NCBI RefSeq assembly: GCF_056746865.1
Contig: NZ_CM163382.1
Strand: one strand, 5' to 3'
DNA length: 64,000 nt
Each line of letters starts with the position of its first letter. Positions within the stretch are counted from its first letter, which is position 1. Shown one piece after another: positions 10,859 to 63,807 of this stretch. The position numbers were made by a program, and so were the translations under genes. The notes beneath the pieces were generated by a model. It saw only the letters and a list, made by a program, of their open reading frames with translations, was not told the DNA's origin and searched no databases.

Positions 10859-12043
10859 ATGGAACAGACCTGGCGCTGGTACGGCCCAAACGATCCGGTT
10901 TCTTTAGCTGATGTCCGTCAGGCGGGCGCAACTGGCGTGGTTACCGCGCTGCACCATATCCCGAACGGCGAAGTATGGTCCGTTGAAGAGATCCTCAAAC
11001 GCAAGGCGATCATTGAAGACGCAGGCCTGGTGTGGTCTGTCGTAGAAAGCGTGCCAATTCACGAAGATATCAAAACCCACACTGGCAACTATGAGCAGTG
11101 GATCGCTAACTATCAGCAGACTCTGCGCAACCTGGCGCAGTGTGGCATTCGCACCGTGTGCTACAACTTCATGCCGGTGCTCGACTGGACCCGTACTGAC
11201 CTCGAATACGTGCTGCCAGACGGCTCCAAAGCTCTGCGCTTCGACCAGATCGAATTCGCTGCATTCGAAATGCATATCCTGAAACGCCCAGGCGCGGAAG
11301 CGGATTACACCGAAGAAGAAATTGCTCAGGCAGCTGAACGCTTCGCCACTATGAGCGATGAAGACAAAGCGCGTCTGACCCGTAACATCATTGCTGGTCT
11401 TCCGGGCGCGGAAGAAGGCTACACCCTCGACCAGTTCCGTAAACACCTGGAGCTGTACAAAGATATCGACAAAGCGAAGCTGCGCGAAAACTTTGCCGTC
11501 TTCCTGAAAGCGATTATTCCAGTTGCTGAAGAAGTCGGCGTGCGTATGGCTGTTCACCCGGACGATCCGCCGCGCCCGATCCTCGGCCTGCCGCGCATTG
11601 TTTCCACCATTGAAGATATGCAGTGGATGGTTGATACCGTAAACAGCATGGCAAACGGTTTTACCATGTGCACCGGTTCCTACGGCGTGCGTGCTGACAA
11701 CGATCTGGTTGATATGATCAAGCAGTTCGGTCCGCGTATTTACTTCACCCATCTGCGCTCCACCATGCGTGAAGATAACCCGAAAACCTTCCACGAAGCG
11801 GCGCACCTGAACGGTGACGTTGATATGTACGAAGTGGTGAAAGCGATTGTTGAAGAAGAACACCGTCGTAAAGCGGAAGGCAAAGAAGACCTGATCCCGA
11901 TGCGTCCGGACCACGGTCATCAGATGCTGGACGACCTGAAGAAGAAAACCAACCCAGGTTACTCCGCAATTGGTCGTCTGAAAGGCCTGGCCGAAGTTCG
12001 CGGTGTCGAACTGGCGATCCAGCGCGCTTTCTTTAGCCGTTAA
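10859..12043 (+). CDS. uxuA: D-mannonate dehydratase UxuA
   Basis: 394 aa from [35 protein letters not shown]; the track ORF has a 12-codon upstream extension. Confidence 0.92.
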
Positions 12044-12123
12044 TATCCACCGGCATGGCTGCGCGCCGTGCCGGTTCCTTCTTCCTTGCCGTCACTCTTT
12101 GAAGACGGATTCTGGAGTTTACG

Positions 12124-13584
12124 ATGACTACTATTGTTGACAGCAATCTGCCGGTTGCCCGCCCGTCATGGGATCATTCTCGTCTGGAATCACGCATTGT
12201 GCATCTCGGTTGCGGGGCGTTTCACCGCGCGCACCAGGCGCTGTATACCCATCATCTGCTGGAAAGCACCGACAGCGACTGGGGCATCTGCGAAGTTAAC
12301 CTGATGCCAGGCAACGACCGCGTGCTGATCGAAAACCTGAAAAAACAGCAACTGCTGTACACCGTAGCGGAAAAAGGCGCAGAGAGCACCGAGCTGAAAA
12401 TTATCGGTTCGATGAAAGAAGCGCTGCATCCGGAAATCGATGGCTGCGAAGGTATTCTCAACGCGATGGCGCGTCCGCAAACGGCGATTGTCTCTCTAAC
12501 GGTCACGGAAAAAGGCTACTGCGCTGATGCGGCAAGCGGTCAACTGGATCTCAATAACCCGCTGATCAAGCACGATCTGGAAAACCCGACTGCGCCGAAG
12601 TCCGCGATTGGTTACATCGTCGAAGCGTTGCGTCTGCGTCGTGAAAAAGGGTTGAAAGCGTTTACGGTGATGTCCTGCGATAACGTGCGTGAAAACGGTC
12701 ATGTGGCGAAGGTCGCGGTACTGGGGCTGGCTCAGGCGCGTGACCCGCAGCTGGCGGCATGGATTGAAGAAAATGTCACCTTCCCGTGCACCATGGTTGA
12801 CCGCATCGTTCCGGCGGCGACGCCAGAAACCTTACAGGAAATTGCTGACCAGCTGGGTGTTTACGACCCGTGCGCCATTGCCTGCGAACCGTTCCGTCAG
12901 TGGGTGATTGAAGATAACTTCGTTAATGGTCGCCCGGATTGGGATAAAGTGGGCGCACAGTTCGTTGCAGACGTTGTGCCGTTCGAAATGATGAAGCTGC
13001 GTATGCTGAACGGCAGCCACTCTTTTCTGGCGTACCTCGGTTACCTCGGCGGCTATGAAACCATTGCCGACACCGTGACTAACCCGGCTTATCGCAAAGC
13101 GGCCTTTGCCCTGATGATGCAGGAACAAGCGCCAACGCTGTCGATGCCGGAAGGTACAGACCTGAACGCCTATGCGACGCTGCTGATCGAGCGTTTCAGC
13201 AACCCGTCTCTGCGTCACCGTACCTGGCAGATTGCGATGGACGGCAGCCAGAAGTTACCGCAGCGTCTGCTGGACCCGGTGCGTCTGCACCTGCAAAACG
13301 GCGGCAGCTGGCGTCACCTGGCGCTGGGCGTGGCTGGCTGGATGCGTTACACCCAGGGCGTGGATGAGCAGGGTAATGCCATTGACGTGGTCGACCCGAT
13401 GCTGGCGGAGTTCCAGAAGATCAACGCGCAGTATCAGGGCGCAGACCGCGTGAAAGCGCTGCTGGGCCTGAGCGGTATTTTTGCCGATGATCTGCCGCAG
13501 AATGCCGACTTTGTTGGCGCAGTGACGGCGGCATATCAGCAGCTGTGCGAACGCGGTGCGCGCGAGTGTGTGGCTGCGCTGTAA
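12124..13584 (+). CDS. uxuB: D-mannonate oxidoreductase (fructuronate reductase) UxuB
   Basis: 486-aa mannitol-dehydrogenase-family protein immediately downstream of uxuA. Confidence 0.9.
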   Translation: MTTIVDSNLPVARPSWDHSRLESRIVHLGCGAFHRAHQALYTHHLLESTDSDWGICEVNLMPGNDRVLIENLKKQQLLYTVAEKGAESTELKIIGSMKEALHPEIDGCEGILNAMARPQTAIVSLTVTEKGYCADAASGQLDLNNPLIKHDLENPTAPKSAIGYIVEALRLRREKGLKAFTVMSCDNVRENGHVAKVAVLGLAQARDPQLAAWIEENVTFPCTMVDRIVPAATPETLQEIADQLGVYDPCAIACEPFRQWVIEDNFVNGRPDWDKVGAQFVADVVPFEMMKLRMLNGSHSFLAYLGYLGGYETIADTVTNPAYRKAAFALMMQEQAPTLSMPEGTDLNAYATLLIERFSNPSLRHRTWQIAMDGSQKLPQRLLDPVRLHLQNGGSWRHLALGVAGWMRYTQGVDEQGNAIDVVDPMLAEFQKINAQYQGADRVKALLGLSGIFADDLPQNADFVGAVTAAYQQLCERGARECVAAL

Positions 13585-13608
13585 CTAACTGATTACCCTA
13601 CAGACTTA

Positions 13609-13653
13609 CTGGTCAATCAAACTGATATTTGGTTGACCAGTTTTCGTTTTTTT
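13609..13653 (+). terminator. Rho-independent terminator of uxuAB
   Basis: CTGGTCAATCAAA / TTTGGTTGACCAG stem (13 bp, one mismatch) with a 6-nt loop, followed by TTTTCGTTTTTTTG. Confidence 0.6.
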
Positions 13654-13714
13654 GCCCACCTGTACGTGCCAACTTCCAGTGCTAATGGTATAGTTTGAGA
13701 TTAACGGGGGCCGT

Positions 13715-13775
13715 AAAATTGCCCGTTGTAGGCCGGATAAGGCGTTCACGCCGCATCCGGCAAAAATTTGATTAA
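13715..13775. repeat. REP element
   Basis: TGTAGGCCGGATAAGGCGTTCACGCCGCATCCGGCA canonical REP-type palindrome upstream of uxuR. Confidence 0.6.
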
Positions 13776-13798
13776 CCGCACCTAACGGACACAACACC

Positions 13799-14572
13799 AT
13801 GAAATCTGCCACCTCTGCGCAAAGACCTTACCAGGAAGTCGGGGCGATGATCCGCGATCTGATCATAAAGACGCCGTACAATCCTGGCGAACGGCTGCCG
13901 CCGGAGCGTGAAATTGCAGAAATGCTTGATGTCACGCGGACGGTGGTACGTGAAGCGCTGATCATGCTGGAGATCAAAGGGCTGGTGGAAGTACGCCGGG
14001 GTGCCGGTATCTATGTTCTTGATAACTCAGGCAGCCAGAACACAGACAGTCCGGATGCCAACGTCTGCAACGATGCCGGTCCTTTTGAGCTGTTACAGGC
14101 GCGGCAGTTATTGGAGAGCAACATCGCCGAGTTTGCCGCTTTGCAGGCTACCCGCGAAGATATCGTCAAAATGCGTCAGGCATTGCAACTGGAAGAGCGT
14201 GAACTGGCTTCCAGTGCGCCGGGCAGCAGCGAAAGCGGTGACATGCAGTTCCATCTCGCTATTGCCGAAGCAACGCATAACAGCATGCTGGTGGAGCTGT
14301 TCCGTCAGTCCTGGCAGTGGCGGGAAAACAATCCAATGTGGATCCAGTTGCACAGCCATCTGGATGACAGCCTGTATCGCAAAGAGTGGTTGGGCGATCA
14401 CAAACAGATCCTCGCCGCGTTAATCAAAAAAGATGCCCGAGCGGCGAAGCTGGCAATGTGGCAGCATCTGGAAAACGTTAAGCAACGTCTGCTGGAATTC
14501 TCGAACGTTGACGATATTTATTTTGATGGCTATCTGTTTGATTCATGGCCGCTGGATAAAGTCGACGCCTGA
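13799..14572 (+). CDS. uxuR: GntR/FadR-family transcriptional repressor UxuR
   Basis: 257 aa with N-terminal GntR-type winged HTH (...RLPPEREIAEMLDVTRTVVREALIMLEIKGLVEVRRGAGIYV) and FCD-type C-domain; follows uxuAB. Confidence 0.9.
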   Translation: MKSATSAQRPYQEVGAMIRDLIIKTPYNPGERLPPEREIAEMLDVTRTVVREALIMLEIKGLVEVRRGAGIYVLDNSGSQNTDSPDANVCNDAGPFELLQARQLLESNIAEFAALQATREDIVKMRQALQLEERELASSAPGSSESGDMQFHLAIAEATHNSMLVELFRQSWQWRENNPMWIQLHSHLDDSLYRKEWLGDHKQILAALIKKDARAAKLAMWQHLENVKQRLLEFSNVDDIYFDGYLFDSWPLDKVDA

Positions 14573-14585
14573 CTTATTATAATAA

Positions 14586-14616
14586 GCGCAAGGGTAAACG
14601 TTCCTTGCGCTTTCTT
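14586..14616 (+). terminator. Rho-independent terminator after uxuR
   Basis: GCGCAAGG-GTAAACGTT-CCTTGCGC hairpin followed by TTTCTT. Confidence 0.55.
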
Positions 14617-14712
14617 AAATTAAGAAGTCGCAATGAGTATTACTTTGTAAATTGCAGGGTATTGTTTAGCTATCTGTATAACCTGAATGTTAGTACTCAT
14701 TCTTCCTGGTAG

Positions 14713-15543
14713 TTATTTACCAATATAATTCCATTCACCATTTTTTAATTCAAACAGTTCTGGAAGAGATGACGGTTGCAGAGTCATACGTTTGAGTGGT
14801 GCATTTTCATCACCCGGGATAACTTTATATCCCATTTTTGCATGGATCTCCGCGGTACCGGGATAGGCTTCTATACCAATTATTGGGTCATTACCCAACT
14901 CAATATTAGCATTAAGTAATGCGGCAAGGGCGAATCCGGAAGAATTTGCTACCCCTGTTACCGTCATTATCTGATCAATATAGATATCAATCCTTGGCTG
15001 CTCATTGGTCCATCTTTTTGCCTGAGAAGCTGGAAGGGTTGAAATATATCCTATCGTGGTTCCGGCATAACCAGGAACATTGCAACCAGGGCCTAATGTT
15101 ATTTCATGAACTGTATAGTCCTCAACAGGATCGAAAGGGCTCTTCATAAATAAATTTAGCCGTAAACCTTCTGCTAACTCTGTGGTAGCATGCGCCTTTT
15201 TACATATGCCACCATATATTTCGTCTAAAGCTGAGGTGATTTTCAAGTTCCGATAGAGCATACGTCCTGTTGTTGTAATACCATCGGATTCTCTGCATGC
15301 TCCTGTCACATAATTAAATGGCCAAGGCTCTTTACTAATATCAAGTTTTCTAATTTCGACAACGCTTTTTCCATCGTAATTATGGTTATTGCCACGAGTA
15401 AGAGGCGGAAGATAGATGTTTTCCGAATCCATGCGTGCATATTTTAATTTACGTGTAAACTCACTGTCGACTATTGGGTGATGAAGGAAGTGAGCATCTG
15501 TAATAATTTGACTCTGAAGGGCATTGCTTAATGGCATAGACAT
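14713..15543 (-). CDS. yjiC: Uncharacterised protein YjiC
   Basis: 276-aa ORF with no recognisable motif; position and length match the yjiC I recall next to uxuR in E. coli. Confidence 0.7.
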   Translation of the reverse strand: MSMPLSNALQSQIITDAHFLHHPIVDSEFTRKLKYARMDSENIYLPPLTRGNNHNYDGKSVVEIRKLDISKEPWPFNYVTGACRESDGITTTGRMLYRNLKITSALDEIYGGICKKAHATTELAEGLRLNLFMKSPFDPVEDYTVHEITLGPGCNVPGYAGTTIGYISTLPASQAKRWTNEQPRIDIYIDQIMTVTGVANSSGFALAALLNANIELGNDPIIGIEAYPGTAEIHAKMGYKVIPGDENAPLKRMTLQPSSLPELFELKNGEWNYIGK

Positions 15544-16215
15544 AATAGTTACCTTTTATGAGTATTTCACTGATGTTTAGAAAAATAGATAAATTTTTCT
15601 GTAGTAAAAAGAGAAGTAAACAAATGACATGCATGTTTCTGTTGTAGTGATATCAACTCTACACGGTGATATTAAAGGGTAGGAAACACTCTAAAGTATC
15701 AAAAAACGCTCATTTAAAATTATTTGCATGCAATTTAAAAGCATATCTTATTACTAATTGGAATTTGATGTTGCTATATTGAGGTCTATATTAATAATGC
15801 CTGTGAATGGTATTTTTGATGTATTTGATATGTTATCAATTTATATTATTTACAAACTAATTGTTTCAAATAATACATGGCTGATTATGCGGAAATAAAT
15901 AATTTCCCACCGGAATTAAGTAGCAGCGGTGACAAGTATTTTCATCTACGTAACTATTCGGAATATTCAGAATATACTAGCGGTTTTTTTTTGAGTTTGA
16001 TGATTTTTATCAAATCATGACTTTTTTCCTGAAAAGTCAGTAGATATTCATAGGCAAGTAAGGTTTTATACTTTGCTGACAGGATTCAGGCCTGTCTCAG
16101 ACTGACATGGATGTAATGAACAAAAGGGAATGGCTATGGAAAATGAGCATCAATACAGTGGTGCCCGGTGTTCAGGGCAAGCCGCATATGTTGCTAAACG
16201 TCAGGAGTGCGCAAA

Positions 16216-16608
16216 ATGATGCGACAATCACTTCAGGCTGTTTTACCTGAAATTTCAGGCAATAAAACGTCATCGCTGCGTAAATCGGTATGCAGCGATC
16301 TCCTCACTCTTTTTAATTCTCCTCATTCGGCATTACCGTCATTACTTGTTTCAGGCATGCCCGAGTGGCAAGTGCATAACCCGAGCGACAAACATCTCCA
16401 GAGCTGGTATTGCCGTCAGCTGCGTTCTGCACTGTTATTTCATGAGCCACGGATTGCGGCGTTGCAGGTTAATTTGAAAGAAGCGTACTGCCACACTCTG
16501 GCGATCAGCCTTGAGATAATGCTGTACCACGACGATGAACCGCTAACGTTTGATCTGGTCTGGGATAATGGCGGTTGGCGCAGTGCGACGCTGGAGAATG
16601 TCAGCTAA
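16216..16608 (+). CDS. iraD: Anti-adaptor protein IraD (inhibitor of RssB-mediated RpoS degradation)
   Basis: 130 aa from [21 protein letters not shown]...; the track ORF starts 3 codons upstream at 16207. Confidence 0.8.
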
Positions 16609-17512
16609 GCACAATCTCCAGCTCGCGCAGTTCACGCCAGAAGCGTTCGGCAACGGGATTCATGCGGGTATTCATCCGGTATGCATAGGCCTGAATCGGG
16701 ATCACCAGTTCGTCCCGATTCAGTACAACGAGCTTCCCGCTGCGAATTTCTTGTTGGATGGCGTACTCCGGCAGCCAGGCAATCCCACAGCCGTCGAGGG
16801 CAACCTGCTTTAAAAGCTCGCTCATCGAAGAGACAAAAAAGGTGCTGAAACTTAACTCACTGTGGCGCGTCAGGGTGCGATTAATCAATCGCCCCATGTA
16901 GGAGTTGCGGCTGTAATTCAGTAACGGAAAGTGTGGCTGCGCGAGGTTAAAAAGTGCTTCTCCGTGTTCGTCACTGGCGCAGACAGGGAACAATTGAGAT
17001 TCAAATAAGCGAATGTGGTCAAACGGCGCTTCCAGCAAATCTTCGTCGTGAAAGGAAAAAATACAGTCACTTTGCCCTTCACGCAGTTTATCGACCGCTT
17101 CATCGACATCAATAGCTTCAATTGCCCAGGTAAAGAGCGGCGGCATCTGGCTGATAATGGACGGTAACAGCCCGAGGGAAAGAGAGTGTGCAGCGGCTAT
17201 CTTGATTTTTCGTTGCGCGTAATCGCTGCCGCCACGCAGCTCTGCCAGATTGCTCTCTAACTGTTGCAACAGATGGCGGATCTGCGAATGGAAGATTTTC
17301 CCTTGTTCTGAGAGTTGCAGCGGCGTTACCTGGCGGTTAAACAATTCAACACCAATCGCCTGTTCCAGCGCACGGATGCGGCGGCTGAATGCCGGTTGCG
17401 AGACGTTGCGACTGACTGCCGCCTGGGAAAAATTGCGGCATTTTTCCAGGGTCAGAAAATCATAAAGCCATTTGGTTTCAATATTATGCAAAATCGCACC
17501 ACAGTCATCCAT
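16601..17512 (-). CDS. hypT: LysR-family transcriptional regulator HypT (YjiE)
   Basis: 303 aa with N-terminal LysR HTH ([35 protein letters not shown]); 3' end overlaps iraD convergently by 8 nt. Confidence 0.85.
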
Positions 17513-17576
17513 TACGTTTTACTCTGTCAGCCGCCCTTGCGGGCATTCTACGTCCATTCGGGCGGCTGACAACCGT

Positions 17577-18749
17577 TTAAGCCGTTTCAAACGTTCCTTT
17601 CACGCAGGCTTTGCCGTCTTTGACCATCAGTTTGCCGCGAGCGTATACCTGCTCAATGCGCAGTTCTGGCGTCATGACCAGCAAGTCAGCATCATTGCCT
17701 GGCAGAATTTCGCCTTTCCCGGTCAGGTTAAGGAAACCGGCTACGCTACTGGTGAGCGGGCGCAGGGCATCGCTGATACTGAAATCATAGTCTTTGACCA
17801 GCACCTGCACGGTTTCCAGCAACGTTTCAAAACCGGCAACACCGATATGGGTTAAATTCCCTTCGTCATCGAAGAACGGCTGGCTACCGTTGCCGTCGGA
17901 GCTGAGGGTGACGCGTGCCAGCGGAATACCCGCCTGAACGGCGCGGGCAATACCTTCGGCAGGGGCGACCGGTTCGTCAATGCTGCTGGTGATATCGATG
18001 GTGCCGCCTTTGCGCGCGAACTCCAGCGCCTGCTCAAACAACGGTACGTTGCGGTTAACGTGGGTCGGCAGCAGCTTGCTGATCGGCACATCGCAGTTTT
18101 CCAGCAGGTCATAAATAGGCTGTAACGCCTTTTTACTGTCGCCCATGTGGAACACGGTGACGCCAGGTTTACCGCCGAGCAAACCGCCAACGCGGGATTC
18201 TGCCGCCATATTGGCCAGGTGATAAACGTCCGGTGCGGCAGAACGGTGATCAGAGATGGCGCATTTCACGCCAATCACACGATCGATAATCGCCACGTCT
18301 TTTTCCACGGAACCCGTAATGGTGCGGGAAGGGACATGATAAGCGCCGGTCAGCATCCAGGCGCTGATGCCTTCTTCATTGAGCGCACGGGTCTTGGCGA
18401 GCAGGGATTCCGGGTGGCGAGAGATAGAGTCGGTGCCCAGCAGACCAACCACTGACGTGACGCCCGCTTCCGTCAGGCGACTTAGCGCCACTTCCGGCGT
18501 GCGCGTCGTGGGACCTGCTTCGCCGCCACCGCCAATCAAATGGACGTGTTGATCAATAAAACCTGGGCAGAGGATCTGCCCACTGAGATCGACAACCGTG
18601 CAGTTCGGTACAATGTCAGAAGGGATATTGCTGGCAACGGCGATAATTTTGCCGTTAGCGACGAGGACATCGCAAATTCCCCGATCTTCCGGCGCATACA
18701 AATGCGCTCCCTGCAGCAGGGTAAAACCGGCTGCGGTATAATCAATCAT
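17577..18749 (-). CDS. iadA: Isoaspartyl dipeptidase IadA (amidohydrolase superfamily)
   Basis: 390-aa protein with metal-dependent hydrolase HxH signature (FIDQHVHLIGGGGE). Confidence 0.88.
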   Translation of the reverse strand: MIDYTAAGFTLLQGAHLYAPEDRGICDVLVANGKIIAVASNIPSDIVPNCTVVDLSGQILCPGFIDQHVHLIGGGGEAGPTTRTPEVALSRLTEAGVTSVVGLLGTDSISRHPESLLAKTRALNEEGISAWMLTGAYHVPSRTITGSVEKDVAIIDRVIGVKCAISDHRSAAPDVYHLANMAAESRVGGLLGGKPGVTVFHMGDSKKALQPIYDLLENCDVPISKLLPTHVNRNVPLFEQALEFARKGGTIDITSSIDEPVAPAEGIARAVQAGIPLARVTLSSDGNGSQPFFDDEGNLTHIGVAGFETLLETVQVLVKDYDFSISDALRPLTSSVAGFLNLTGKGEILPGNDADLLVMTPELRIEQVYARGKLMVKDGKACVKGTFETA

Positions 18750-31588: not shown

Positions 31589-34500
31589 ATGTTGTGGGGT
31601 TTTGTTTTTGTATCTTTTATCTCTAAGGAGCTTGCTTTGGGTCAATCAGAATACATTTCATGGGTAAAATGTACTTCCTGGCTAAGTAACTTTGTGAATC
31701 TTAGAGGGTTGAGACAACCGGATGGCCGTCCTCTTTATGAATATCATGCAACCAATGATGAATATACCCAATTAACGCAGCTACTCCGTGCAGTCGGTCA
31801 ATCACAATCTAATATATGTAATAGGGACTTTGCTGCCTGTTTTGTTCTTTTTTGCTCTGAGTGGTACCGCAGGGATTATGAACGGCAATGCGGATGGACG
31901 TGGGACCCTATATATAAAAAAATAGGGATTTCATTCACCGCCACAGAGCTTGGTACTATCGTACCGAAAGGGATGGAAGATTACTGGCTGCGCCCAATTC
32001 GATTTTATGAATCTGAACGACGCAATTTTCTCGGAACATTATTCAGTGAAGGTGGTTTACCTTTCCGGCTACTCAAAGAATCAGACAGTCGCTTTCTGGC
32101 TGTTTTCTCCAGGATCCTTGGACAATATGAGCAAGCAAAGCAGTCAGGTTTTTCTGCCCTTTCGCTGGCAAGAGCTGTCATAGAAAAATCAGCGCTGCCA
32201 ACTGTTTTTAGCGAAGATACCTCTGTAGAACTTATCAGTCATATGGCTGATAACCTCAATTCCTTAGTACTTACTCACAACCTAATAAATCACAAAGAAC
32301 CAGTACAACAGCTTGAGAAGGTTCACCCTACCTGGCGAAGCGAGTTTCCAATACCGTTAGATGATGAAACAGGAACGCATTTTTTGAATGGACTGCTATG
32401 CGCAGCCTCTGTAGAGGCTAAGCCTCGACTACAAAAAAATAAGAGTACGCGTTGCCAATTCTATTGGTCAGAAAAGCATCCAGATGAGCTTAGGGTGATA
32501 GTATCTCTTCCGGACGAAGTTTCCTTTCCTGTAACAAGCGAGCCGTCAACTACGCGCTTTGAACTTGCCATTTGTGAAGATGGTGAGGAAGTCTCTGGCC
32601 TTGGGCCAGCCTATGCTTCTCTGGAAAACAGACAGGCAACAGTTCGATTACGTAAAAGCGAAGTGAGATTTGGCAGGCAAAATCCATCGGCAGGTTTGTC
32701 GTTAGTGGCTCGTGCTGGAGGGATGATTGTTGGGAGCATTAAACTTGATGACAGTGAAATTGCCATTGGTGAGGTGCCGTTAACCTTCATCGTTGATGCA
32801 GATCAATGGCTGTTACAGGGACAGGCTTCTTGCAGTGTGCGAAGCAGCGATGTTCTGATTGTGCTCCCTCGGGATAATAGCAATGTTGCTGGTTTTGATG
32901 GCCAATCGAGGGCAGTAAACGTATTAGGACTAAAAGCACTACCTGTGAAGGGATGTCAGGACGTTACAGTTACAGCAAATGAAACTTATCGGATTCGCAC
33001 CGGAAGAGAACAAATCAGCATCGGAAGGTTTGCTCTAAATGGAAAGCGTGCAAGCTGGGTTTGTCATCCAGATGAAACATTTATTGGTGTACCAAAAGTC
33101 ATTTCTACACTACCGGATATTCAAAGCATTGATGTAACGCGTTACCTGAGCGGAATTTCAATTGAGCAATGTCATATACAAGAGATGCTGGGGGCTCAAT
33201 ATCTTTCTATCCGTAATAGTAAGAATGAAACGCTCTTGCGTCGCAAAATCGGTATTTTGCCTGCTGATTTCAGTATTGAGATAAAAGGTGGAATACACGC
33301 AAATGAAGGCACTATCGTAATCACCACACAGCATCCTTGTGTAGCAAAACTTAAAGATAAAACATTGGAGGCTACACGTAAGCGTACTGAGGGGCGAACA
33401 GAGATACAACTCAAAGCGGAAGGGGTACCTCCGGCATTTATTACATTACAAGTTCTGCCTAATTTGGCGGCTGACCCCATCGATATTGAGTTACCTTTTC
33501 CCGCTAAAGGCTGTCTCGCTCTTGATGTAAACGGACGTCCTCTGGATAAAAACATTACGCTGCATGATCTGCTGGGTTCCAGAGCGTTTCTGTTCTCCAG
33601 AAATGGCGAGCCGACAAGATATACATTGCAGTTGCATTTGCGCTCCGTTAGTGGATTACAGGCATGGCACGAATGGTGTTATACGGCGTTGAGCGATCGT
33701 CCTGTTGAATTGAATCTCTATAGTCTGCGCGAACATATTGAGAACCTGATTTCACTTGAGGCAGGTATTGACCAGGTTGTTGAGATGCGTATTACGGGGG
33801 CGGGTGTGGTCATGGCCTGGCAAATTCGTCGCTATAAATACAGTCTGCGCTATGATTATGAAAAAGAACTATTACTCAGCCAGTCAGTGAACCATCGTGC
33901 TGGACAGATTCCTTCCCCCGTTATCATGCTGTTAAGTGAACCCGAGAGGAAATCCATCCCCTTAGCATCAAGAATGAGCGAGGGAGTGCCTGTCGGTGAA
34001 TATGAGTTGAGCTCAATCGTTAACAAAAATGGACCGTGGTTGGTTGTCCCTAAACCGGGTGAAGAGATGGCTTTTCGTCCCTGCTTCATTCGTGGCGAAT
34101 CTTCGTTACCGGTAGAAGAAAGCAACATCCGCTCATTGCAGAAAGCGACCCAGCTTTTTAATCCACAGGCAGAAGTTAATACCATCACACTGGTTCTCGG
34201 ACAGATGGCTAACGATCCTGCCCATTCCGGCTGGCAATTTATGCGTAGCCTGTACGATCAATTTGGTTATTTACCACTGGCAACCTTTGAAGTATGGCGT
34301 GCACTGGTGCAGCATCCGCAGGCATTGGCAATGTCGCTCTTCAAATTTGAAATGTCAGCAGAGTACCTGAGTCGTATTGAGAATGAGTTCCCTATTCTAT
34401 GGGAGTTTTTCCCCATCTTTGAGATCAAAGCGGCATCTGAGCGTTTCAAATTGTTCCTGAGCCAAAAAGGTGCACCGGAGGAAACCCAGAAATTACTGGT

Positions 34501-34927
34501 TACTAATATGTTTCAACGGCTGGGGCTCGTGTTCCCGACATATGCCGATGAAATTGAGAAATGGTTAAGTAACGGACATCTCCCCCCGTCTATTCCTGAG
34601 TCTTTTGTCCACGTGTGGTATCAGGAGCTTTTACGTGAGCATAGTGAAGCTCAATGGCCAGAGTACGGCAGCAAGCGGCTGCATAGCTGGATGGCATCAC
34701 AAAAAAATCCAGTGATTGGTATTAATCCTGACGCAAATCACCGCTATTCCGTGGCCTTGTTACCCGTCTTCGCTGCAGCTGTGGCAAGCGGAAATGCTTC
34801 TTTTGAATCTGTATTTGACCGTAAACCCGGTGCCGTATTTTTCCTGAGGCAAGTCAGGGATTTCGATTCCCGCTGGTTTAAGGCCATCTTCCAGTGCAGC
34901 CTGTTGCGTTATGTTGCTAAAAAATAA
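31589..34927 (+). CDS. Large protein of unknown function (up to 1112 aa), first gene of a two-gene candidate defence operon; DruH-like by architecture
   Basis: Long uninterrupted ORF ending 12 bp before the helicase gene. No P-loop, nuclease or methylase motif recognised by eye. Coding sequence is visibly AT-richer than its neighbours. An alternative TTG start at 31637 has an AAGGAG RBS 6 nt upstream. From memory this corresponds to a full-length version of the yjiT fragment of K-12. Confidence 0.75.
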   Translation: MLWGFVFVSFISKELALGQSEYISWVKCTSWLSNFVNLRGLRQPDGRPLYEYHATNDEYTQLTQLLRAVGQSQSNICNRDFAACFVLFCSEWYRRDYERQCGWTWDPIYKKIGISFTATELGTIVPKGMEDYWLRPIRFYESERRNFLGTLFSEGGLPFRLLKESDSRFLAVFSRILGQYEQAKQSGFSALSLARAVIEKSALPTVFSEDTSVELISHMADNLNSLVLTHNLINHKEPVQQLEKVHPTWRSEFPIPLDDETGTHFLNGLLCAASVEAKPRLQKNKSTRCQFYWSEKHPDELRVIVSLPDEVSFPVTSEPSTTRFELAICEDGEEVSGLGPAYASLENRQATVRLRKSEVRFGRQNPSAGLSLVARAGGMIVGSIKLDDSEIAIGEVPLTFIVDADQWLLQGQASCSVRSSDVLIVLPRDNSNVAGFDGQSRAVNVLGLKALPVKGCQDVTVTANETYRIRTGREQISIGRFALNGKRASWVCHPDETFIGVPKVISTLPDIQSIDVTRYLSGISIEQCHIQEMLGAQYLSIRNSKNETLLRRKIGILPADFSIEIKGGIHANEGTIVITTQHPCVAKLKDKTLEATRKRTEGRTEIQLKAEGVPPAFITLQVLPNLAADPIDIELPFPAKGCLALDVNGRPLDKNITLHDLLGSRAFLFSRNGEPTRYTLQLHLRSVSGLQAWHEWCYTALSDRPVELNLYSLREHIENLISLEAGIDQVVEMRITGAGVVMAWQIRRYKYSLRYDYEKELLLSQSVNHRAGQIPSPVIMLLSEPERKSIPLASRMSEGVPVGEYELSSIVNKNGPWLVVPKPGEEMAFRPCFIRGESSLPVEESNIRSLQKATQLFNPQAEVNTITLVLGQMANDPAHSGWQFMRSLYDQFGYLPLATFEVWRALVQHPQALAMSLFKFEMSAEYLSRIENEFPILWEFFPIFEIKAASERFKLFLSQKGAPEETQKLLVTNMFQRLGLVFPTYADEIEKWLSNGHLPPSIPESFVHVWYQELLREHSEAQWPEYGSKRLHSWMASQKNPVIGINPDANHRYSVALLPVFAAAVASGNASFESVFDRKPGAVFFLRQVRDFDSRWFKAIFQCSLLRYVAKK

Positions 34928-34939
34928 AAAGGAATAAGG

Positions 34940-37900
34940 ATGACTACACGCTATTTTTCGTCACTTATTGAACAATCGTTGTCTCGTTCAACTGAAGCAA
35001 CGCTCAGTATCATGGGCGTTACCAACCCGCAGCTGCGTGAACATCTCGCGCAACAAATGGGGGCTGATTGTGGGAAACCGGGCTCATTCCTTGCTTCTCC
35101 GGTATTCCAGCAAATGTTTGGCTGGAAGGAGTCAAACCACACGATGCGCAGCCTGACGGAAGGCAACGCATTGTTGAGCAAAGCAGTGGTTGATTCACTG
35201 GATGATCAGAATAATGGCCGGTACCGGTTTGGTGCTGACTGGAGGCCTTTTACGCACCAGTTAGCCAGTTGGAAAGCTTTGCTGGAAAAGAAACATTCAG
35301 TGGTGGTAACCAGTGGTACGGGTTCAGGTAAAACGGAATGTTTTATGGTACCGGTGCTGGAAGATCTTTACCGGGAACTGCATGAAAATGGCAACAATCC
35401 GTTGGTCGGTGTCCGAGCCCTTTTTCTCTATCCATTGAACGCCCTGATTAATTCACAGCGCGAGCGTCTGGATGCCTGGACGCGTGGTTTTGGTACAGGG
35501 ATCCGCTACTGCCTTTACAACGGCAACACCGAAAACCTACACGCTTCGGTAAAAAGCGAACAGGCAAAAAGGCCGAATGAGGTGCTCTCGCGCGAAAAAA
35601 TGCGTGAAGAACCTGCGCCGATTCTGGTGACCAACGGCACGATGCTGGAATATATGATGGTTCGCCAGGTCGACGCCCCGATTATCCAGCAATCTAAAGC
35701 ACAAAAATCACTACGCTGGATTGTACTGGATGAAGCGCATACCTATGTAGGGTCGCAGGCCGCTGAACTGGCGCTCCAGCTGCGTCGTGTGATGACCGCG
35801 TTTGGCGTGACACCAGATGACGTGCGCTTTGTCGCGACCTCTGCGACCATTGCCGGCAGCGACGCTGAAAAGCAGCTGAAAAAATTTCTCTCTGAATTAT
35901 CCGGTATCCCGCAGGAGCGCATCGATGTTCTGGACGGAAGTCGGGTGATTCCTGAACTGGAACCATCCAAAAACGTTTCTGTTCCGTTAGACGAGATAGA
36001 GCAAATACCTGATCTGGATCTAAGAGATAAAAATGATAATAAAATTAAAGGGATAAGTCCTGAGCGCTTTTATGCGCTTACGCATTCCCCCGAAGCGCGT
36101 TACATACGTGAGATGTTGGTCAAACAGCCCAATCCGATGAAGCTGGATGAGATAACAGAGCGGTTACACGTGCTGACAAAACAGCATTACAGCCAGCAGG
36201 AAGTACTGCGTTGGATCGATGTCTGTTCAGGGACTCAACCTAATGCAAAGGATCCCGCATTTCTTAAAGTCAGGGCGCATATCTTCCAGCGTAATACCCA
36301 GGGAATATGGGCTTGTGTTGATAAAGATTGCAGATTAAAGCACGGTACACCGCTCGACAAAGGCTGGCCCTTTGGCTATGTGTATGTGAACCAGCGACAA
36401 AATTGTGACTGTGGAAGCCCTGTATACGAAGTTGCATTCTGTAATGATTGTAATGAGCCTCATCTTCTGGCACGGGACAAAAAGGGCAAACTAGTCCAGT
36501 GGGAAAATAAAGGTGGCGATGAATTCTCTTTGCAGGATGAAGTACCTGTTGAACATGACGCTACAGAAGAAAAAGTCGAAAAAGAGAACAGTTTTCAGCC
36601 TCCGTTGATTATTGCCGCAGGAGAGACCAGCGAGGCAGGTTATACCCTACAACGCCTCGACCGTCAGACGCGCCGTATTGGCGTTATTAACAATGACAGC
36701 ATTCCGCTGATTATTAATGATATTGAACAGGTTTGTAGTGCCAGTGGCTGTGGCTACAGAGGCATGAGTGGGAAACAGCCCTTCCGGCGTGCACTATTAG
36801 GTGGGCCATTTTACGTTACTAATATCGTGCCCACCGTTCTAGAGTATTGTCAGGACTTTACCAGTGATGAAGGCAAAGAGGGCGTCGGACCAGATTCGTT
36901 GCCAGGACGAGGTCGTCGACTCATCACCTTTACAGACAGTCGACAAGGGACAGCCCGAATGGCGGTGCGTATGCAGCAAGAAGCAGAACGCAGTCGCTTA
37001 CGCGGAAGCGTAGTCGAAATTCTCAGCTGGCATCAAAGGACGCAAACGTCTACAGCGCCGAATGCCAATGCCGATCTGGAAAAATTAGCGGCCAGGGCGA
37101 AGCAAGCCCGTGAGCAGGCAGAAGAATATCGAAGCTGGGGAATGCCAGACCAGGCGAAATTGTCACAAGCACAGGCTGAACAGCTTGAACAGGCTTATCA
37201 GGCTGCAACCGGTGGGAAAGCTGCGACTATCCTGGTATCCCGAACCTGGACGGAGATGGTTAACGAGCTTAAAGAGAGAGCCGATATCCGCGGGCCGGTT
37301 CTGCAATATAACCATTATCTTAAGCCTGAAGTGTTTAATGAAAACGGCGGCCCCCTTAAGCTTTCTGAAATGTTGTTGTTCCGGGAATTCATGCGTCGCC
37401 CTAAACGGACTAACAGCCTGGAAACACAGGGGCTGGTTCAGGTTGGTTACCAGGGGCTGGAGAAAATACATAAGAGCCCCTTGCACTGGCAGGAAAAAGG
37501 ATTAACGCTGGATGACTGGCGCGATTTTCTCAAGGTTACGTTGGATCATTACGTTCGCGAGAGCAACTTCACACAGCTGGATGATGAGCTGAAAAACTGG
37601 ATTGGTAGCCGTTTTTCATCAAAATTCGTCCGTAACCCGGAATCAAAAGATCCTGAAGATAATCAGAACAGACGCTGGCCTCAAATTCGTAATGGCAACG
37701 TATCCCATCGTTTAGCGAAGTTGCTGATGCTGGGGGCTGGATTCAAAACCGTCAATGCGGCAACTATTGATATTATCAATACATGGCTGAAAGAAGCATG
37801 GGCCCAACTTACCGGACCGCTTGCAGTACTGAAACCCGATGGCAACCGTTTTTATTTACCGAAAGAGCATATGACTTTTTCTTTAATCACGGATGCCTGG

Positions 37901-40900
37901 ATTTGCCCGGTAACCAATAAAATCCTGGATACGGCTTTTAAAGGCTTAACCCCTTATCTGCCTACCCATATTTCGTTCGAGCATCTTACCCTGGCGCAAT
38001 ATGACACTTTTGTCGCGCAGAAAGTCACAATGCCGGAAATCTGGAAGCTGGATCGTTCACAGGAAGACTACGCAGAGGGTCTGGCAAAAGCACGCGACTG
38101 GGTCAGCCATGATCCGCTGATCGCACAATTGCGGTCGGAAAACGTCTGGACAGACATTAACGATCGTGTCGTGGAAGGCGGCTTCTACTATCGTACTGCC
38201 GAGCACTCTGCCCAGCAGTCGTCAGAACGTCTGCAAAGCTATGAAAAGATGTTCAAGAATGGGCAACTAAATGTTCTCAACTGTTCCACCACCATGGAAA
38301 TGGGGGTTGATATCGGGGGTATTACTGCGGTGGTAATGAACAACGTACCGCCACATCCGGCCAACTATTTACAGCGCGCCGGGCGAGCCGGGCGTAGTAA
38401 AGAATCACGCGCGATCTCTTACACCCTATGTAAAGGTAACCCACACGACCAGCAGGTTTTTGCCAACCCGCTCTGGCCATTTGAAACCATGATCCCGGCA
38501 CCCATGGTCGCGATGAACTCCGCCCGACTGGTGCAACGTCACGTCAATGCATTATTACTGTCCGACTTTTTATGTAACGTTATTGGCGAAACCGATAAAG
38601 AAAAAACCAGCCTCGATAGCCTCTGGTTTTTCGGTGAAGATGACGGGCAGTCAAAATGCGAACGCTTTAAAATCTGGCTGGAACGTCCGGTTCTTGATAT
38701 CGACACGGCGCTGGAACGGCTGGTGAAAGGTACGGCGTTGCATGGTGCAAGAGCCGAATATCTGCGGGATAAAACAATCAACGCGATCACCTTCCTGCAA
38801 CAGCGGTGGCTCTCCGTTTATCGCGATCTCGTGACACAGGAGCGTGAGTCGCAGCCGCAAACGCCTTATCGTAAGCGCATAGAGCTGGAGAAGAAACGGC
38901 ACTGTGGCGAGTATCTGCTGCGCGATCTGGCTGCCAGAACCTTCCTGCCGGGATACGGTTTCCCGACAGATGTAGTGACGTTTGATAACTTCACGATGGA
39001 AGATTATATCCGCGAAAAATCGCAGAAAAGTCGTGATAAAAAGGACCGTGAAGATAACGTTTCCCGTTATAAAGGATTACCTTCCCGTAACCTCGGTGTT
39101 GCCATTCGTGAATATGCACCGGGAGCAGAGATCATCCTTGATGGCCGTGTCTTCCGCTCTGCCGGTGTCTCACTGCACTGGCACAACATTAATGCTGATA
39201 CCAATGAAGCCCAGCGTCTGGATTGCGCCTGGCGCTGTCACAAATGCGGGACCATTGGCTATGAAGAGGGGATGAGCAGTTCCGGGATGCTCTTTTGCTC
39301 CAATAGCGCCTGCGGCGAAAAAATAATCATGGATAATCGCCGTCAGGTGCTGCAGCCTGCCGGGTTTGTCACCGATGCACACGCTCCGGTAACGAACAAT
39401 ATTGAAACCATGAAATTCGTCCCGGTTGTCCCCGCGTGGGTCTTTGTTAAAGCAGAGCCCGTACCGTTGCCTAACCCGCTAATGGGTTATATGGCTTCTG
39501 GGGCTGATGGGCATGTTTTCCAGCAAAGTTTGGGGGAAGGTGGACACGGTTATGCATTGTGTCTGAGCTGTGGCCGTGCTGAGTCGATGCTGAATGAAAA
39601 TGATGCGCCGAAAAGTATGGAAGCTCACTATCCACCGCGTCCGGGTAAAGCGGATCGCGACAGCCAGAATCATCGTCTGATTTGCCCCGGTTCGACGGCA
39701 CTCATGAAGAATGTCACCCTGGGCGCACTGGCGCGTACCGATGTCTTTGAAATGGTTCTGCGCAAACCGCAAAACGGCGAGTATCTGCCAGATAACACAG
39801 AGGAGGGGCGGATTGTTGCCATGACTCTGGCGGTTGCTCTGCGTCAGGCGCTGGCGGGCGTTCTGGGTATCTCCGCCGCAGAACTCGGCTATTCTGTACG
39901 TCCGGTCAGACTGGAGGATGGGCAATCGGTATTAGCCGTACAGCTTTATGATGTGATCAGCGGTGGTGCAGGTTTTGCCTCCAGCGCACCGGTACACATT
40001 GAAGCTATATTGCAGGGAATGGTGAAACAGTTAGGCTGCCGCCATTGTGAGACTGCATGTAGTGAATGCCTGCTTGATTCCCAGACTCGCCACGATCACG
40101 ATTTGCTGGATCGCAAAGCGGCGCTGGCCTGGCTTGGCGATGACTTCACGTATTACATCGGTTTACCGGATGAAGAGACATTCTCGCTGCCGGATGCCCG
40201 CTACTGCCCTGGCGCCATTGGCGATACGATTCGCCGGGCGATTAACGAAGGCGCTGAAAAGCTCACCCTGTGGATGACCGGCGCGCCCAATGAGTGGGAT
40301 TTATACGCACGTCAGTTCCGCGCGGCGGTTCAGAACTATCGGCTAAAAGACAACGTCGAGGTCGATCTTGTTATTCCTACGGGAGTGGATGACCCGGACC
40401 TGTTGCATGAACTATCGCAATTTACTGCGCTGGGTGTGCGGCTGTGCCATGTTGAACAGGATCTGCAATTACCGATCGTTGCCCAGGTCACCTTTACCGA
40501 TCGCGTGATGACGCTGGCCTCTCGCAGCCAGCAGGCAACGATTCCGGGGCCGGAGTGGCACCTGAATGACGAACTGGTGGTGCGTAGTCTCGGTTATAAA
40601 ACGGTAGAACTGAACGAGTTTATTCTGCCGGCTAAAGCCACCAACGCTGTCGAGCGGGTCAAAGACATTCAGATCCACAAACAGTTGAATGGACCACTGT
40701 CGCAGTTTGGGCAACGCTTCTGGGACGTGCTGTTTAACGACCATGAAGAAGCGCAGTCACTGATGAATAACACGCGAATTACCGGCGTTCACTATACCGA
40801 TCGCTATCTGCAAAACCCGGTTGCGCTGGCGTTGTTGGGATCAATTCTGAGACCGCTAAAAACAAAGCTGACCGATGGCGCTGAAGTGACGCTGGATACG

Positions 40901-41284
40901 CTATTTAAAGATAAAGATCGCCCCGGTAACCGGCCTTTCCATGACTGGATGAGCATAGCGGATTTTCAGGATTTCGCTGATCAGTGGTTTGCTGCTGCGC
41001 TGGGCAGGCCGGTAGAACTGACGGTGTTCGACTCGCCGCGCGATATCCCTCACCATCGTAAACTGACGGTGACTTTTGAGGATGGTCAGGTATTGAAGAT
41101 CCGCTTCGATCAGGGGATGGGCTACTGGCGCATCAACTTTTCATCGCAATGGCATTACTTTGATTTCCGCGATGACGTTTCTTTCCAGTTAGTCAAAATG
41201 GCTCAGGCCTGCAAGGAAGGGAATGTCGCCAACAGCGAAGAGAGTTGGGCAACGGATGTGCTGGTGGAGGTGATCGCCTCCTGA
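34940..41284 (+). CDS. Giant (2114 aa) superfamily-2 DEAH-box helicase with Zn-ribbon / DUF1998-like Cys clusters; DruE-like by architecture
   Basis: ATG at 34940 with AAGGA RBS. Walker A GTGSGKTE (35315-35338), motif II IVLDEAH (35720-35740), motif [10 protein letters not shown] (38372-38395), Cys clusters CAWRCHKCG (39224-39247) and [11 protein letters not shown] (40037-40069). Operonic with the upstream 1112-aa gene. Confidence 0.85.
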
Positions 41285-43927: not shown

Positions 43928-44269
43928 TTACGCGACTTTCTGTTTACCGGCAATCACTCCAATAAACGCCTGCACCTGCTTTTGTTTACGCGCCGACAGT
44001 TTGCACACCTGGCGTAGCGACTGCATCAGTTCGCTCTCCTCGGCGGCGGGTGGTTGGGCGGTGAGGACAATACAGCCTTCCATCACTTTGACATCTACCG
44101 CCGTGCCAGTGGCAAAACCGGCGGCTTCCAGCCACTGACCTTTCAGGGTGATGGCGGGAATACGGCTGTAATCCGGGTAGCGACTCGCATAACCGACGGT
44201 GACATGACGGTTATTTGCCGGGGAGACTTCTGCTTCGAACGGTTGTGCAATAGAATGCGTGTCAGTCAT
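43928..44269 (-). CDS. symE: SOS-induced toxin-like protein SymE (type I toxin-antitoxin, AbrB-fold)
   Basis: 113 aa from [34 protein letters not shown]; located between mcrB and hsdS; the track ORF is extended upstream. Confidence 0.8.
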
Positions 44270-44338
44270 AACTGCTATTCTCCAGGAATAGTGATTGTGA
44301 TTAGCGATGCGGGTGTGTTGGCGCACATCCGCACCGCG
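44262..44338 (+). ncRNA. symR: Candidate antisense sRNA SymR (RyjC) overlapping the symE 5' end; coordinates approximate
   Basis: Established knowledge that a roughly 77-nt cis-antisense RNA overlaps the symE ribosome-binding site and start codon. The exact ends cannot be fixed from sequence; a 9-bp stem hairpin at 44309-44332 lies within the region. Confidence 0.25.
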
Positions 44339-44346
44339 CTAAATAC

Positions 44347-56100: not shown

Positions 56101-56613
56101 TTAAATCGCAGCTTCCATTTCCAGCATCACCGGATGGAAACGGCGTTTAAAGTAGATAAGTCCGTGACCTTCTGCACTGAGGATGATGTTTTTAATCTCC
56201 ACCAGATACACCAGATGTGTGCCAATTGCCTGCACATCGCGGATCTCACCTTCAAGACTGGCCAGCGAACCTTTTAGCACCGGCTGCGCCAGCGGACCTT
56301 TTTGCCAGCATGAGAGGCTAAAACGCTCTTCCATCGCCATGCCTGTCATGCCCGCGAAGTGGCGTGCCATCAGTTCCTGCTCATGGTTGAGGACGTTGAC
56401 GCACAACTTGCCGTTGCCCTGAAAAACCGGGTTCATCGCACTGTTGGCGTTAATGCACACCATCAGCGACGGTGGTGTATCCGTGACCGAGCAGACAGCC
56501 GTTGCCGTAATCCCGCATTGTCCGGTGTCGCCCTCGGTGGTGATAATATTTACCGCTGCCGACAGGCTGGCCATCGCGTCACGAAAGCGCAGGCGTTGTT
56601 CATCTAATTGCAT
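56101..56613 (-). CDS. hpaC: 4-hydroxyphenylacetate 3-monooxygenase, flavin:NADH reductase component HpaC
   Basis: 170-aa flavin-reductase-family protein directly downstream of hpaB. Confidence 0.88.
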   Translation of the reverse strand: MQLDEQRLRFRDAMASLSAAVNIITTEGDTGQCGITATAVCSVTDTPPSLMVCINANSAMNPVFQGNGKLCVNVLNHEQELMARHFAGMTGMAMEERFSLSCWQKGPLAQPVLKGSLASLEGEIRDVQAIGTHLVYLVEIKNIILSAEGHGLIYFKRRFHPVMLEMEAAI

Positions 56614-56630
56614 CTTAACCTCCTGCTGCG

Positions 56631-58193: not shown

Positions 58194-58443
58194 GTCGACC
58201 TCTACAGTATTAATCGGAATACGATTGTTAATTTTGTGTGTTGTTTTTGTTATTCAATTGAAGCTTGCAGGGGCGATTACGGGAAGAGACTTTTGGGACA
58301 ATGGCTGGTACTTTTCAGGTCGGGTACGGTTTTGTGATCGAGGTCGCTTTTAGCGATTTTTGACGTTACTAAATCCCCTTGCTCCAGGCGGAGAAAGGGG
58401 AATAGCAGGTGGTGCCTGGTTTCCCGTTAAGGCTAAGGGATTT

Positions 58444-59334: not shown

Positions 59335-59343
59335 CGTCGTTCC

Positions 59344-60720: not shown

Positions 60721-60764
60721 TTTTCTTCCTCTAATGGGATTTTTGTAGGGTACGACAAGGTTTA

Positions 60765-60894
<130 letters not shown>

Positions 60895-60900
<6 letters not shown>

Positions 60901-61683: not shown

Positions 61684-61693
61684 CGTTCTCTCC

Positions 61694-62497: not shown

Positions 62498-62514
62498 AGC
62501 GATATCCTGTGGCA

Positions 62515-62550
62515 TTGCCGGATGCGGCTGCGCCTTATCATCCAGCCTGG
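62515..62550. repeat. REP-like element
   Basis: GCCGGATGCGGCTGCGCCTTATC REP-type sequence between hpaH and hpaF. Confidence 0.45.
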
Positions 62551-62564
62551 AAGCTGGTGCAAAT

Positions 62565-62945: not shown

Positions 62946-62954
62946 GGTTTTTCC

Positions 62955-63806: not shown

Positions 63807-63807
63807 A

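Follow-up and report, generated by a model that had tools for sequence, protein, structure and literature searches.

The tail-to-tail overlap of iraD and hypT in Escherichia coli: a possible rearrangement scar with a palindrome at the junction

The coding regions of iraD and hypT share eight nucleotides at their 3′ ends in the 64,000-nucleotide stretch of DNA analysed here (the window). We put the probability at about one half that this overlap, though real, is no more than an incidental structural scar, that the hairpin at the junction is now a 3′-end element shared by both mRNAs, and that antisense effects between the two genes are unselected. The overlap itself is already known, as it is visible in the reference annotation. 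Three points appear to be undescribed in the literature searched: the derived origin of the overlap via loss of the iraD stop, a second and independent junction, and a palindrome that bears both stop codons. These points are of specialist interest only.

The overlap and its reading frames

In both the ORF list and RefSeq, iraD occupies 16216–16608 on the + strand and encodes the 130-aa anti-adaptor IraD, and hypT (yjiE/qseD) occupies 16601–17512 on the − strand and encodes a LysR-type regulator of 303 aa. Direct reading gives 16601–16608, TCAGCTAA, as the 8 nt common to the two 3′ ends. On the + strand iraD ends GTC AGC TAA, with its stop at 16606–16608. On the − strand hypT ends GTG CTT AGC TGA, with its stop at 16603–16601, which reads tca on the + strand. 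The centre of the overlap, AGCT, supplies the last Ser codon for IraD and HypT alike.

The same ends are found in every annotation compared. The ORF list gives 16207–16608 (+) and 16601–17512 (−), and RefSeq for strain 7/2 gives, in window-equivalent coordinates, 16216–16608 for iraD and 16601–17512 for hypT. The curated MG1655 record carries the same overlap (iraD b4326, 4556993–4557385; hypT b4327, 4557378–4558289), and the window is 100% identical to MG1655 over 11723–16723. The overlap is invariant in all K-12-type junction haplotypes compared and is annotated likewise in six further K-12-type strains (6/6 compared). A preliminary description of this DNA had given the gene names, strands, stops and 8-nt overlap length, and all of these agree with the sequence, the ORF list, RefSeq and the MG1655 annotation.

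Two side observations concern coordinates. The iraD start is placed at GTG 16207 in the ORF list and at ATG 16216 in RefSeq, which leaves the 3′ end unaffected. As a whole the window is not MG1655: positions 20001–64000 are identical to FDAARGOS_497 (hpa cluster, intact yjiT and yjiV), and MG1655 coordinates are invalid past 33 kb of the window.

The preliminary description had named a different stop assignment for either gene as a result that would overturn it. An annotation artefact of this kind, with one stop misassigned and the genes not truly overlapping, has a negligible probability. Both stop-bearing frames carry significant Pfam domains, GPW_gp25 over IraD residues 20–106 and HTH_1 with LysR_substrate over HypT residues 14–297. 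The crystallised IraD construct (PDB 6OD1 chain B, residues 17–130) ends at residue 130 with ...LENVS, and the hypT product equals its Salmonella orthologue (PDB 5YDW) in length within one residue. The curated MG1655 annotation agrees. Because Pfam homology and solved structures back both frames, no alternative stop assignment is possible. As genuine coding genes on opposite strands with 3′ nucleotides in common, iraD and hypT form a convergent overlapping pair.

We also considered what the overlap costs the two proteins. Residues N128, V129 and S130 of IraD, together with the preceding three, lie outside its gp25 domain. In the IraD–RssB crystal 6OD1, residues 18–124 were built from the 17–130 construct and residues 125–130 were unmodelled (PMC6546054). 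IraD tails vary among lineages in sequence as well as in length (127 to 134 aa). The last five residues of HypT vary too (EIVLS, EIEPG, and LQAA plus one in Salmonella); they lie past the LysR domain, and length is conserved in Salmonella. Because the extra IraD residues are unmodelled and the HypT end lies past the LysR domain, there is no cost to either protein, and the overlap constrains nothing important.

The window has seven convergent junctions (gaps of 242, 140, −8, 12, 243, 56 and 45 nt), tabulated from the annotation of the matching strain, and only at iraD–hypT do coding regions overlap. For E. coli, Huvet and Stumpf counted 75 pairs that overlap convergently (PMC4161906). The iraD–hypT overlap is an ordinary member of this common class and is not beyond chance. 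With some 75 such overlaps in E. coli and no function attached to this one, it matters little in itself.

Origin of the junction within Escherichia

Of 5426 complete E. coli genomes, 4880 (~90%) have the iraD–hypT junction as one contiguous match to a 62-nt probe, and 4879 to a 200-nt probe. The other ~10% have no contiguous junction, and two alternative forms were found. GimA+ strains, for example JA0265, carry uxuR, an iraD of 127 aa (...WHRTMPQ and stop), a 12-bp hairpin and convergent ptsP, with which the ~20-kb GimA cluster begins. The cluster's other end has nhaC/ibeT opposite hypT across 86 nt that contain a second hairpin. In remnant strains a 372-nt ptsP fragment lies between iraD and hypT. 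Homburg et al. 2010 describe three yjiD–yjiE patterns (GimA+, remnant and GimA−) and argue that in group B2 GimA is the ancestral state (PMC2878320). In the window iraD and hypT overlap with no GimA-derived sequence between them, which is the GimA− pattern.

Related Escherichia differ further. In E. albertii, where the stretch analysed stops short of hypT, yjiC and iraD (127 aa) are accompanied by the same hairpin and by ptsP of full length (90% aa identity), which iraD faces. Escherichia sp. E1V33 has the remnant form, and there, as in GimA+ and remnant E. coli, iraD and hypT are both present and kept apart. E. whittamii and SCPM-O-B-8794 have a different direct junction, in which IraD is 134 aa long and overlaps hypT by 21 nt. 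The lineage of E69, P0018 and P0008 has kept an iraD tail ending ...KVS and ~20 nt of the hypT 3′ end, and the hypT body is deleted. Matches to the ptsP protein by tblastn, in a database that excludes the window, were limited to GimA+, E. albertii and remnant loci. A scan of IraD alignments with one genome per species returned Escherichia loci only, plus one contaminant contig. No orthologous iraD–hypT pair was found outside Escherichia; the nearest IraD homologues there are Citrobacter tssE genes in T6SS clusters.

This distribution bears on whether the overlap could be a selected cis-antisense or interference device, in which induction of iraD by DNA damage or in stationary phase would lower hypT, or the reverse, and so would link RpoS with the hypochlorite response. 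We consider such a device improbable. In its favour, about 90% of E. coli genomes carry the junction almost unchanged, but near-invariance within E. coli is expected from recent common descent. B2 E. coli (GimA+ or remnant), E. albertii and Escherichia sp. E1V33 lack the arrangement, hypT is deleted in E69-type lineages, and the E. whittamii junction is a different one. The conservation looked for in a functional cis-antisense pair or excludon-like module is lacking here, since the junction differs among relatives.

The iraD tails and the flanking homology point to how the overlap arose. A table of tails showed that iraD forms facing ptsP stop at codon 128 (TAA or TGA), and that in both direct-junction types codon 128 encodes an amino acid and reading continues to the next stop. 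In the window, the probe matches and this table delimit a junction-derived iraD end, AAT GTC AGC TAA (N128, V129, S130 and stop), at 16597–16608 on the + strand. In the partial matches of both probes, position 16597, which lies 4 nt beyond the hypT stop, is the first with homology to the GimA+ sequence beside hypT. The two GimA+ ends share a microhomology, with CCGCAG followed by TAAATG after iraD and TTGCAG followed by AATAATGTCAGCTAA before hypT. Joined directly, these ends would read ...CAG AAT AAT GTC AGC TAA; the window reads ...GAG AAT GTC AGC TAA, with one AAT fewer.

From these comparisons we infer both the direction and the mechanism of the rearrangement. In ancestral Escherichia, iraD would have ended at codon 128, with its own hairpin, opposite ptsP, and hypT would have stood opposite the last GimA gene. 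In the lineage of most non-B2 E. coli, the DNA from the iraD stop to 4 nt short of the hypT stop would then have been lost, possibly via the short GCAG/AA(T) homology at both ends. With its stop gone, iraD would read three further codons (N-V-S) to the first in-frame TAA, which is antisense of hypT codons L302/S303. The hypT gene would have stayed put, and the surviving junction would be the one whose frame adds only three residues. Entering hypT antisense in the iraD frame gives an overlap of 8 nt, and the other two frames give 88 and 213 nt.

The identities of the two genes indicate a less direct path. K-12-type iraD DNA is ~81–82% identical to every other allele, including that of E. albertii, and hypT is ~99% identical, so the junction did not arise by a simple, recent deletion. 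Judging from these identities, recombination that broke at the hypT stop and replaced the allele was probably part of the origin. The polarity, GimA loss and not insertion, is suggested by a handful of outgroup genomes, one of which, E. albertii, offers a locus that is cut off ahead of hypT. As another source of the iraD tail, an inverted duplication of the hypT end was considered and rejected, because the codons that form the left arm of the junction palindrome align with ancestral iraD tails (K-12-type codons 122–127).

The palindrome and the 3′ ends of the two transcripts

A strong palindrome, which the preliminary description had overlooked, holds the overlap in its loop. It is imperfect, spans 46 nt (16583–16628) and forms a hairpin on both strands with a stem of 14 bp and a bulged C16589. 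Its left arm, GTGCGA(C)GCTGGAGA, lies within iraD codons S123–N128, and its right arm, TCTCCAGCTCGCGC, lies within hypT codons R296–I300; an inverted-repeat search returned arms at 16590–16601 and 16611–16622. Both stop codons fall in the loop, inside which a few further pairs form. RNAfold gave −25.3 kcal/mol (+) and −24.2 kcal/mol (−) for the 46-mer, with z scores of −5.4 and −4.5, and 0/200 shuffles reached these values. When all 50-nt segments of the 64-kb window, both strands included, are ranked by stability, it lies in the top 0.04% and is sixth among distinct loci. None of the hairpins at the other six convergent junctions of the window is as strong, and four of the seven junctions have one of −22 kcal/mol or better. 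The palindrome is statistically unusual, and selection for it is not demonstrated.

The same scar could have arisen with a palindrome that is accidental, in which case the transcripts would run on until Rho ends them and selection would act on the reading frames alone. We regard this as a possible, somewhat doubtful account. The rank of the hairpin among 50-nt windows and the failure of all shuffles to match it argue against an accident, as does its centring exactly on the two stop codons. Comparable hairpins at both ancestral junctions and at most other convergent junctions of the window argue in the same direction. On the other side, ordinary genes of the window contain internal hairpins of −25 to −28 kcal/mol, such as those at 3424 and 17875, and the left arm comes from ancestral iraD tail codons and not from a dedicated element.

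The flanks of the stem also favour an accidental palindrome. A U-tract after the stem is absent on both strands, where the tails are AGUUCACGCC (+) and CACUGCGCCAACC (−). Of the two features of an intrinsic terminator, the GC-rich stem-loop is thus present on both strands and the U-tract on neither, so the palindrome is not a canonical terminator. At the comparison junction, between convergent uxuR and yjiC, both tracts are present. The ancestral (GimA+) junctions have one hairpin each, of −21 to −29 kcal/mol, likewise without a clean U-tract.

Variation in the stem gives further support to an accident. E. coli variants include C16589T in the bulge, C16622T, which turns a G-C pair into G-U, and C16610T in the loop. 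In the O157:H7 lineage a synonymous change, G16593T, is fixed; it breaks a central G-C pair and takes the fold from −27 to −20.8 kcal/mol. There is no covariation: among five haplotypes, which vary little, we found neither compensatory changes in the stem nor double changes. No hairpin was found at the independent 21-nt junction (z scores of +0.8, −0.15 and +1.3), so a hairpin is unnecessary for such a junction to persist. In an Rfam scan of the window symR was the sole match, with nothing at the junction.

We then considered where the transcripts would end. A standard scan found no canonical intrinsic terminator in 15500–18000 on either strand. There is no intergenic room, no canonical terminator and no U-tract behind the hairpin, and primary transcripts that run over both stops are therefore complementary. 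The preliminary description had stated that the transcripts must be complementary at their 3′ ends, and for such primary transcripts this is a sound inference. The two mRNAs would have been left without a canonical terminator because the deletion removed both ancestral intergenic hairpins. Polymerases leaving either gene would read the opposite gene in antisense.

Weak terminator-like hairpins were found in both directions by a relaxed scan only. For read-through hypT RNA, ATCGCUGC...GCAGCGAU followed by GACGUUUUAUUG (16260–16299, − strand; −15.1 kcal/mol, z −2.0) lies ~300 nt inside iraD, antisense in its 5′ part. For read-through iraD RNA, UGCCGC...GCGGCA followed by UUUUU (17417–17445, + strand; about −9 kcal/mol) lies ~800 nt inside hypT, again antisense in the 5′ part. 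Rho normally terminates untranslated antisense RNA of this kind. Over its first 80 nt, the RNA past the hypT stop is C-rich and G-poor, with a C/G ratio of 1.65; this is a mild Rho-loading signal, not a decisive one, and it fits an accidental palindrome with termination by Rho. Past the iraD stop the RNA shows no marked C-richness (C/G roughly 1.0–1.2), which does not fit.

If the overlap is a scar with a shared 3′-end element, as we favour, the palindrome would act on both mRNAs in one of two ways. It could make polymerases pause or collide, as at a "bidirectional terminator", or it could block 3′ exonucleases once Rho has terminated transcription beyond it. Mature 3′ ends would be expected at ~16630 for iraD and ~16580 for hypT, and the mature mRNAs would have ~46 nt in common, each self-folded. 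Self-folding of each 3′ end would lessen pairing between the two mRNAs and not promote it. Antisense or interference effects are probably a small and unavoidable side effect of the junction and not a selected regulatory device.

The transcripts bear on the selected device from both sides. Their primary forms are necessarily complementary with no canonical terminator between the genes, and iraD is strongly inducible, so antisense into hypT could rise under stress. Upon AZT treatment ytiC is induced 260-fold, ytiD 33-fold, idlP 18-fold and iraD 14-fold (PMC11228462). E. coli also offers a precedent in the arfA 3′ coding sequence and the mscL 3′ UTR (PMC10070815). However, complementary 3′ ends are found without known function in 75% of convergent operons; Conway et al. 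2014 reported them for 276 of 370 in E. coli, with a mean of 286 nt (PMC4161252). The hairpin would, moreover, sequester the complementary 3′ ends intramolecularly.

Both genes are weakly expressed, which also argues against a device, and Term-seq recorded no 3′ ends for them. The leader ORF idlP (16136–16219, + strand, RefSeq) belongs to the iraD transcription unit and overlaps the iraD start by ATGA (16216–16219). The two are translationally coupled with low transcript abundance, and Northern blotting failed to detect an iraD fusion transcript (PMC5574718). Upstream of hypT, a consensus scan found a putative promoter-like site, TTGTCA-16-TAGAAT, with 10/12 matches to consensus (17545–17572, − strand). 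The Term-seq supplements of Adams et al. 2021 list no 3′ ends or Rho regions for iraD, hypT, yjiE or idlP, and the SMRT-Cappable-seq supplements have no entry for any of the four. We found no mention of an iraD–hypT link in the literature or in accessible 3′-end data sets, and thus no literature support for a device. The preliminary description had proposed transcriptional interference or antisense effects between the RpoS anti-adaptor and HypT. That coupling is unsupported: complementary ends are common, the arrangement is not conserved and the literature is silent on it.

A more elaborate possibility is that the palindrome is a working bidirectional 3′-end element in which translation gates the choice between pausing or termination and antisense read-on. 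Once both ancestral terminator hairpins had been deleted, the palindrome would have arisen from the two ORF tails. With both stops in the loop, ribosomes that terminate on either mRNA would hold the stem open. The choice between pausing or termination and antisense reading would then depend on translation of iraD, which is CsrA-gated through idlP, or of hypT. We think this unlikely to be how the junction works. If true, translation gating would form a link between RpoS and the hypochlorite response in non-B2 E. coli only.

Significance and comparison with known systems

Under the scar reading that we favour, the junction has modest value as a worked example of how an overlap is born: a large deletion or allele replacement would have taken one stop and both terminators, and the surviving junction is one whose frame adds only three disordered residues. 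The strains also provide a natural experiment, with the overlap and its hairpin in the K-12 type, a weakened hairpin in O157:H7, and genes 20 kb apart with hairpins of their own in B2. Comparing these strains could ask whether U-tract-less hairpins define mRNA 3′ ends and whether convergent genes without terminators interfere. The junction also matters for the design of iraD or hypT deletions, since removing either ORF end destroys the partner's stop region and the shared stem.

Several known systems resemble the junction in part. Bidirectional terminators at convergent pairs need an RNA stem-loop and resemble neither intrinsic nor Rho-dependent sites, and the SEnd-seq class (Ju et al. 2019) has been proposed to involve pausing and polymerase collision, as described in a preprint (bioRxiv 10.1101/2022.10.23.513370). 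The palindrome is like this class in its location at a convergent junction and in its stem-loop in both directions, a likeness at the level of sequence. It differs in that its stem consists wholly of coding sequence of the two genes and both stops are in its loop.

The arfA–mscL pair (PMC10070815) has a similar tail-to-tail layout, in which a 3′ coding sequence is complementary to the partner's 3′ end and both genes are stress-related. For that pair a regulatory effect and enriched co-localisation in Enterobacterales have been shown, whereas the adjacency of iraD and hypT is unconserved even within Escherichia. Complementary 3′ ends of the kind reported by Conway et al. 2014 (PMC4161252) are expected for iraD–hypT too. 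The same authors use the word excludon where transcripts that start at divergent promoters overlap and are thought to repress the opposite strand; iraD and hypT are convergent.

With respect to the GimA polymorphism (PMC2878320), the window represents the GimA− pattern, and the other two patterns were recovered in complete genomes. The relevant passages of Homburg et al. 2010 make no mention of the GimA− overlap, the altered IraD C-terminal tail or the palindromic junction. Convergent overlapping pairs (PMC4161906) are the closest class, as they likewise consist of two coding genes sharing 3′ ends, with stop-codon displacement as the mechanism proposed for the overlap. The iraD–hypT pair differs from them in that its history appears readable: the stop would have been lost together with a 20-kb cluster, and a sister species has a second, independent junction at which the overlap is 21 nt.

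Divergence of iraD beside a conserved hypT

The K-12-type junction joins iraD (16216-16608, + strand) directly to hypT (16601-17512, - strand) through an 8-nt tail-to-tail overlap (16601-16608). When the iraD allele of the window was compared with those of five fetched loci (L006, from a GimA-positive E. coli; L008; L009, from E. albertii; L010; and L012, which carries the ptsP remnant), it exhibited only 81-82% nucleotide identity to all of them. The B2 and E. albertii alleles share 87% identity, and the K-12-type is the most divergent iraD allele of the genus among those compared. The neighboring hypT gene, in contrast, exhibits ~99% identity between the K-12-type and B2. Divergence therefore changes sharply at the hypT stop, and this boundary suggests an old replacement of the iraD allele.

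The body of hypT has been deleted in Escherichia strain E69 and in metagenome contigs (L008 4380-4470; L022 1630-1720; L023). In these lineages, iraD (ending ...GKVS*) retains GTCAGCTAA and ~15 nt from the 3' end of hypT, after which it adjoins the hypT upstream region and then iadA. This retained sequence dates the K-12-type junction to before the deletion. Among lineages that keep the overlap, hypT of the O157:H7 strain Z852 (L015 1217-2071) is annotated as an N-terminally shortened protein of 284 aa, and hypT of strain 99_0849 (L005 1597-2509) as a frameshifted pseudogene. Judged from these annotated sequences, hypT would thus be dispensable or altered in some overlap-keeping lineages.

The junction was also found in a 605-nt contig filed as Bacillus coahuilensis m4-4 (NZ_ABFU01000118.1), whose sequence matches the E. 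coli iraD/hypT junction, including the overlap, at 100% identity. This contig is almost certainly E. coli contamination of the Bacillus assembly.

Sequences flanking the junction

The leader ORF idlP (16136-16219, + strand) ends in an ATGA at 16216-16219 that overlaps the iraD start, a known site of translational coupling (PMC5574718). Every Escherichia iraD allele fetched keeps both the ATGA and the idlP ORF, even where idlP is not annotated.

On the other side of hypT, 64 nt separate its start (17512) from the iadA stop (17577), and this spacer holds a hairpin, GTCAGCCGCCC...GGGCGGCTGAC (17524-17573, + strand; -31.0 kcal/mol), that ranks second in stability among 50-nt hairpins of the entire window. 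This hairpin overlaps a promoter-like consensus match on the - strand (17572-17545). It could be a terminator for iadA and could also influence hypT transcription. Within the 3' part of hypT, two perfectly complementary 11-nt arms, CTGAATCGGGA / TCCCGATTCAG, form an inverted repeat around an 11-nt spacer (16691-16723).

Differences from MG1655 and relatives of IraD

Parts of the window are not K-12-like; the regions concerned are 31637-41284, 33146-36162, 38313-40494 and 56101-64000. MG1655 lacks two segments of the window, 3.0 and 2.2 kb in length. In the window, yjiT (3291 nt) and the DEAD/DEAH helicase gene after it (6345 nt), which is yjiV in K-12, are both intact long ORFs; in MG1655, yjiT is short and yjiV is a pseudogene. 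The hpa (4-hydroxyphenylacetate) cluster follows btsT. At gathering level, Rfam gives a single match in the window, the SymR antitoxin RNA (44264-44340, + strand; 95.3 bits), which lies antisense to symE (43928-44269) at the 5' end of that gene.

Outside Escherichia, the nearest IraD homologues are tssE genes of Citrobacter (L019, L020 and L021, each at 4001-4381), with ~47-54% identity. Each belongs to a complete type VI secretion cluster (tssB, tssC, hcp, tssE, tssF, tssG and clpV), and IraD therefore looks like an orphan TssE/gp25 descendant restricted to Escherichia. Some of the Citrobacter tssE genes bear the NCBI name "anti-adapter protein IraD"; the name has passed onto true TssE proteins.
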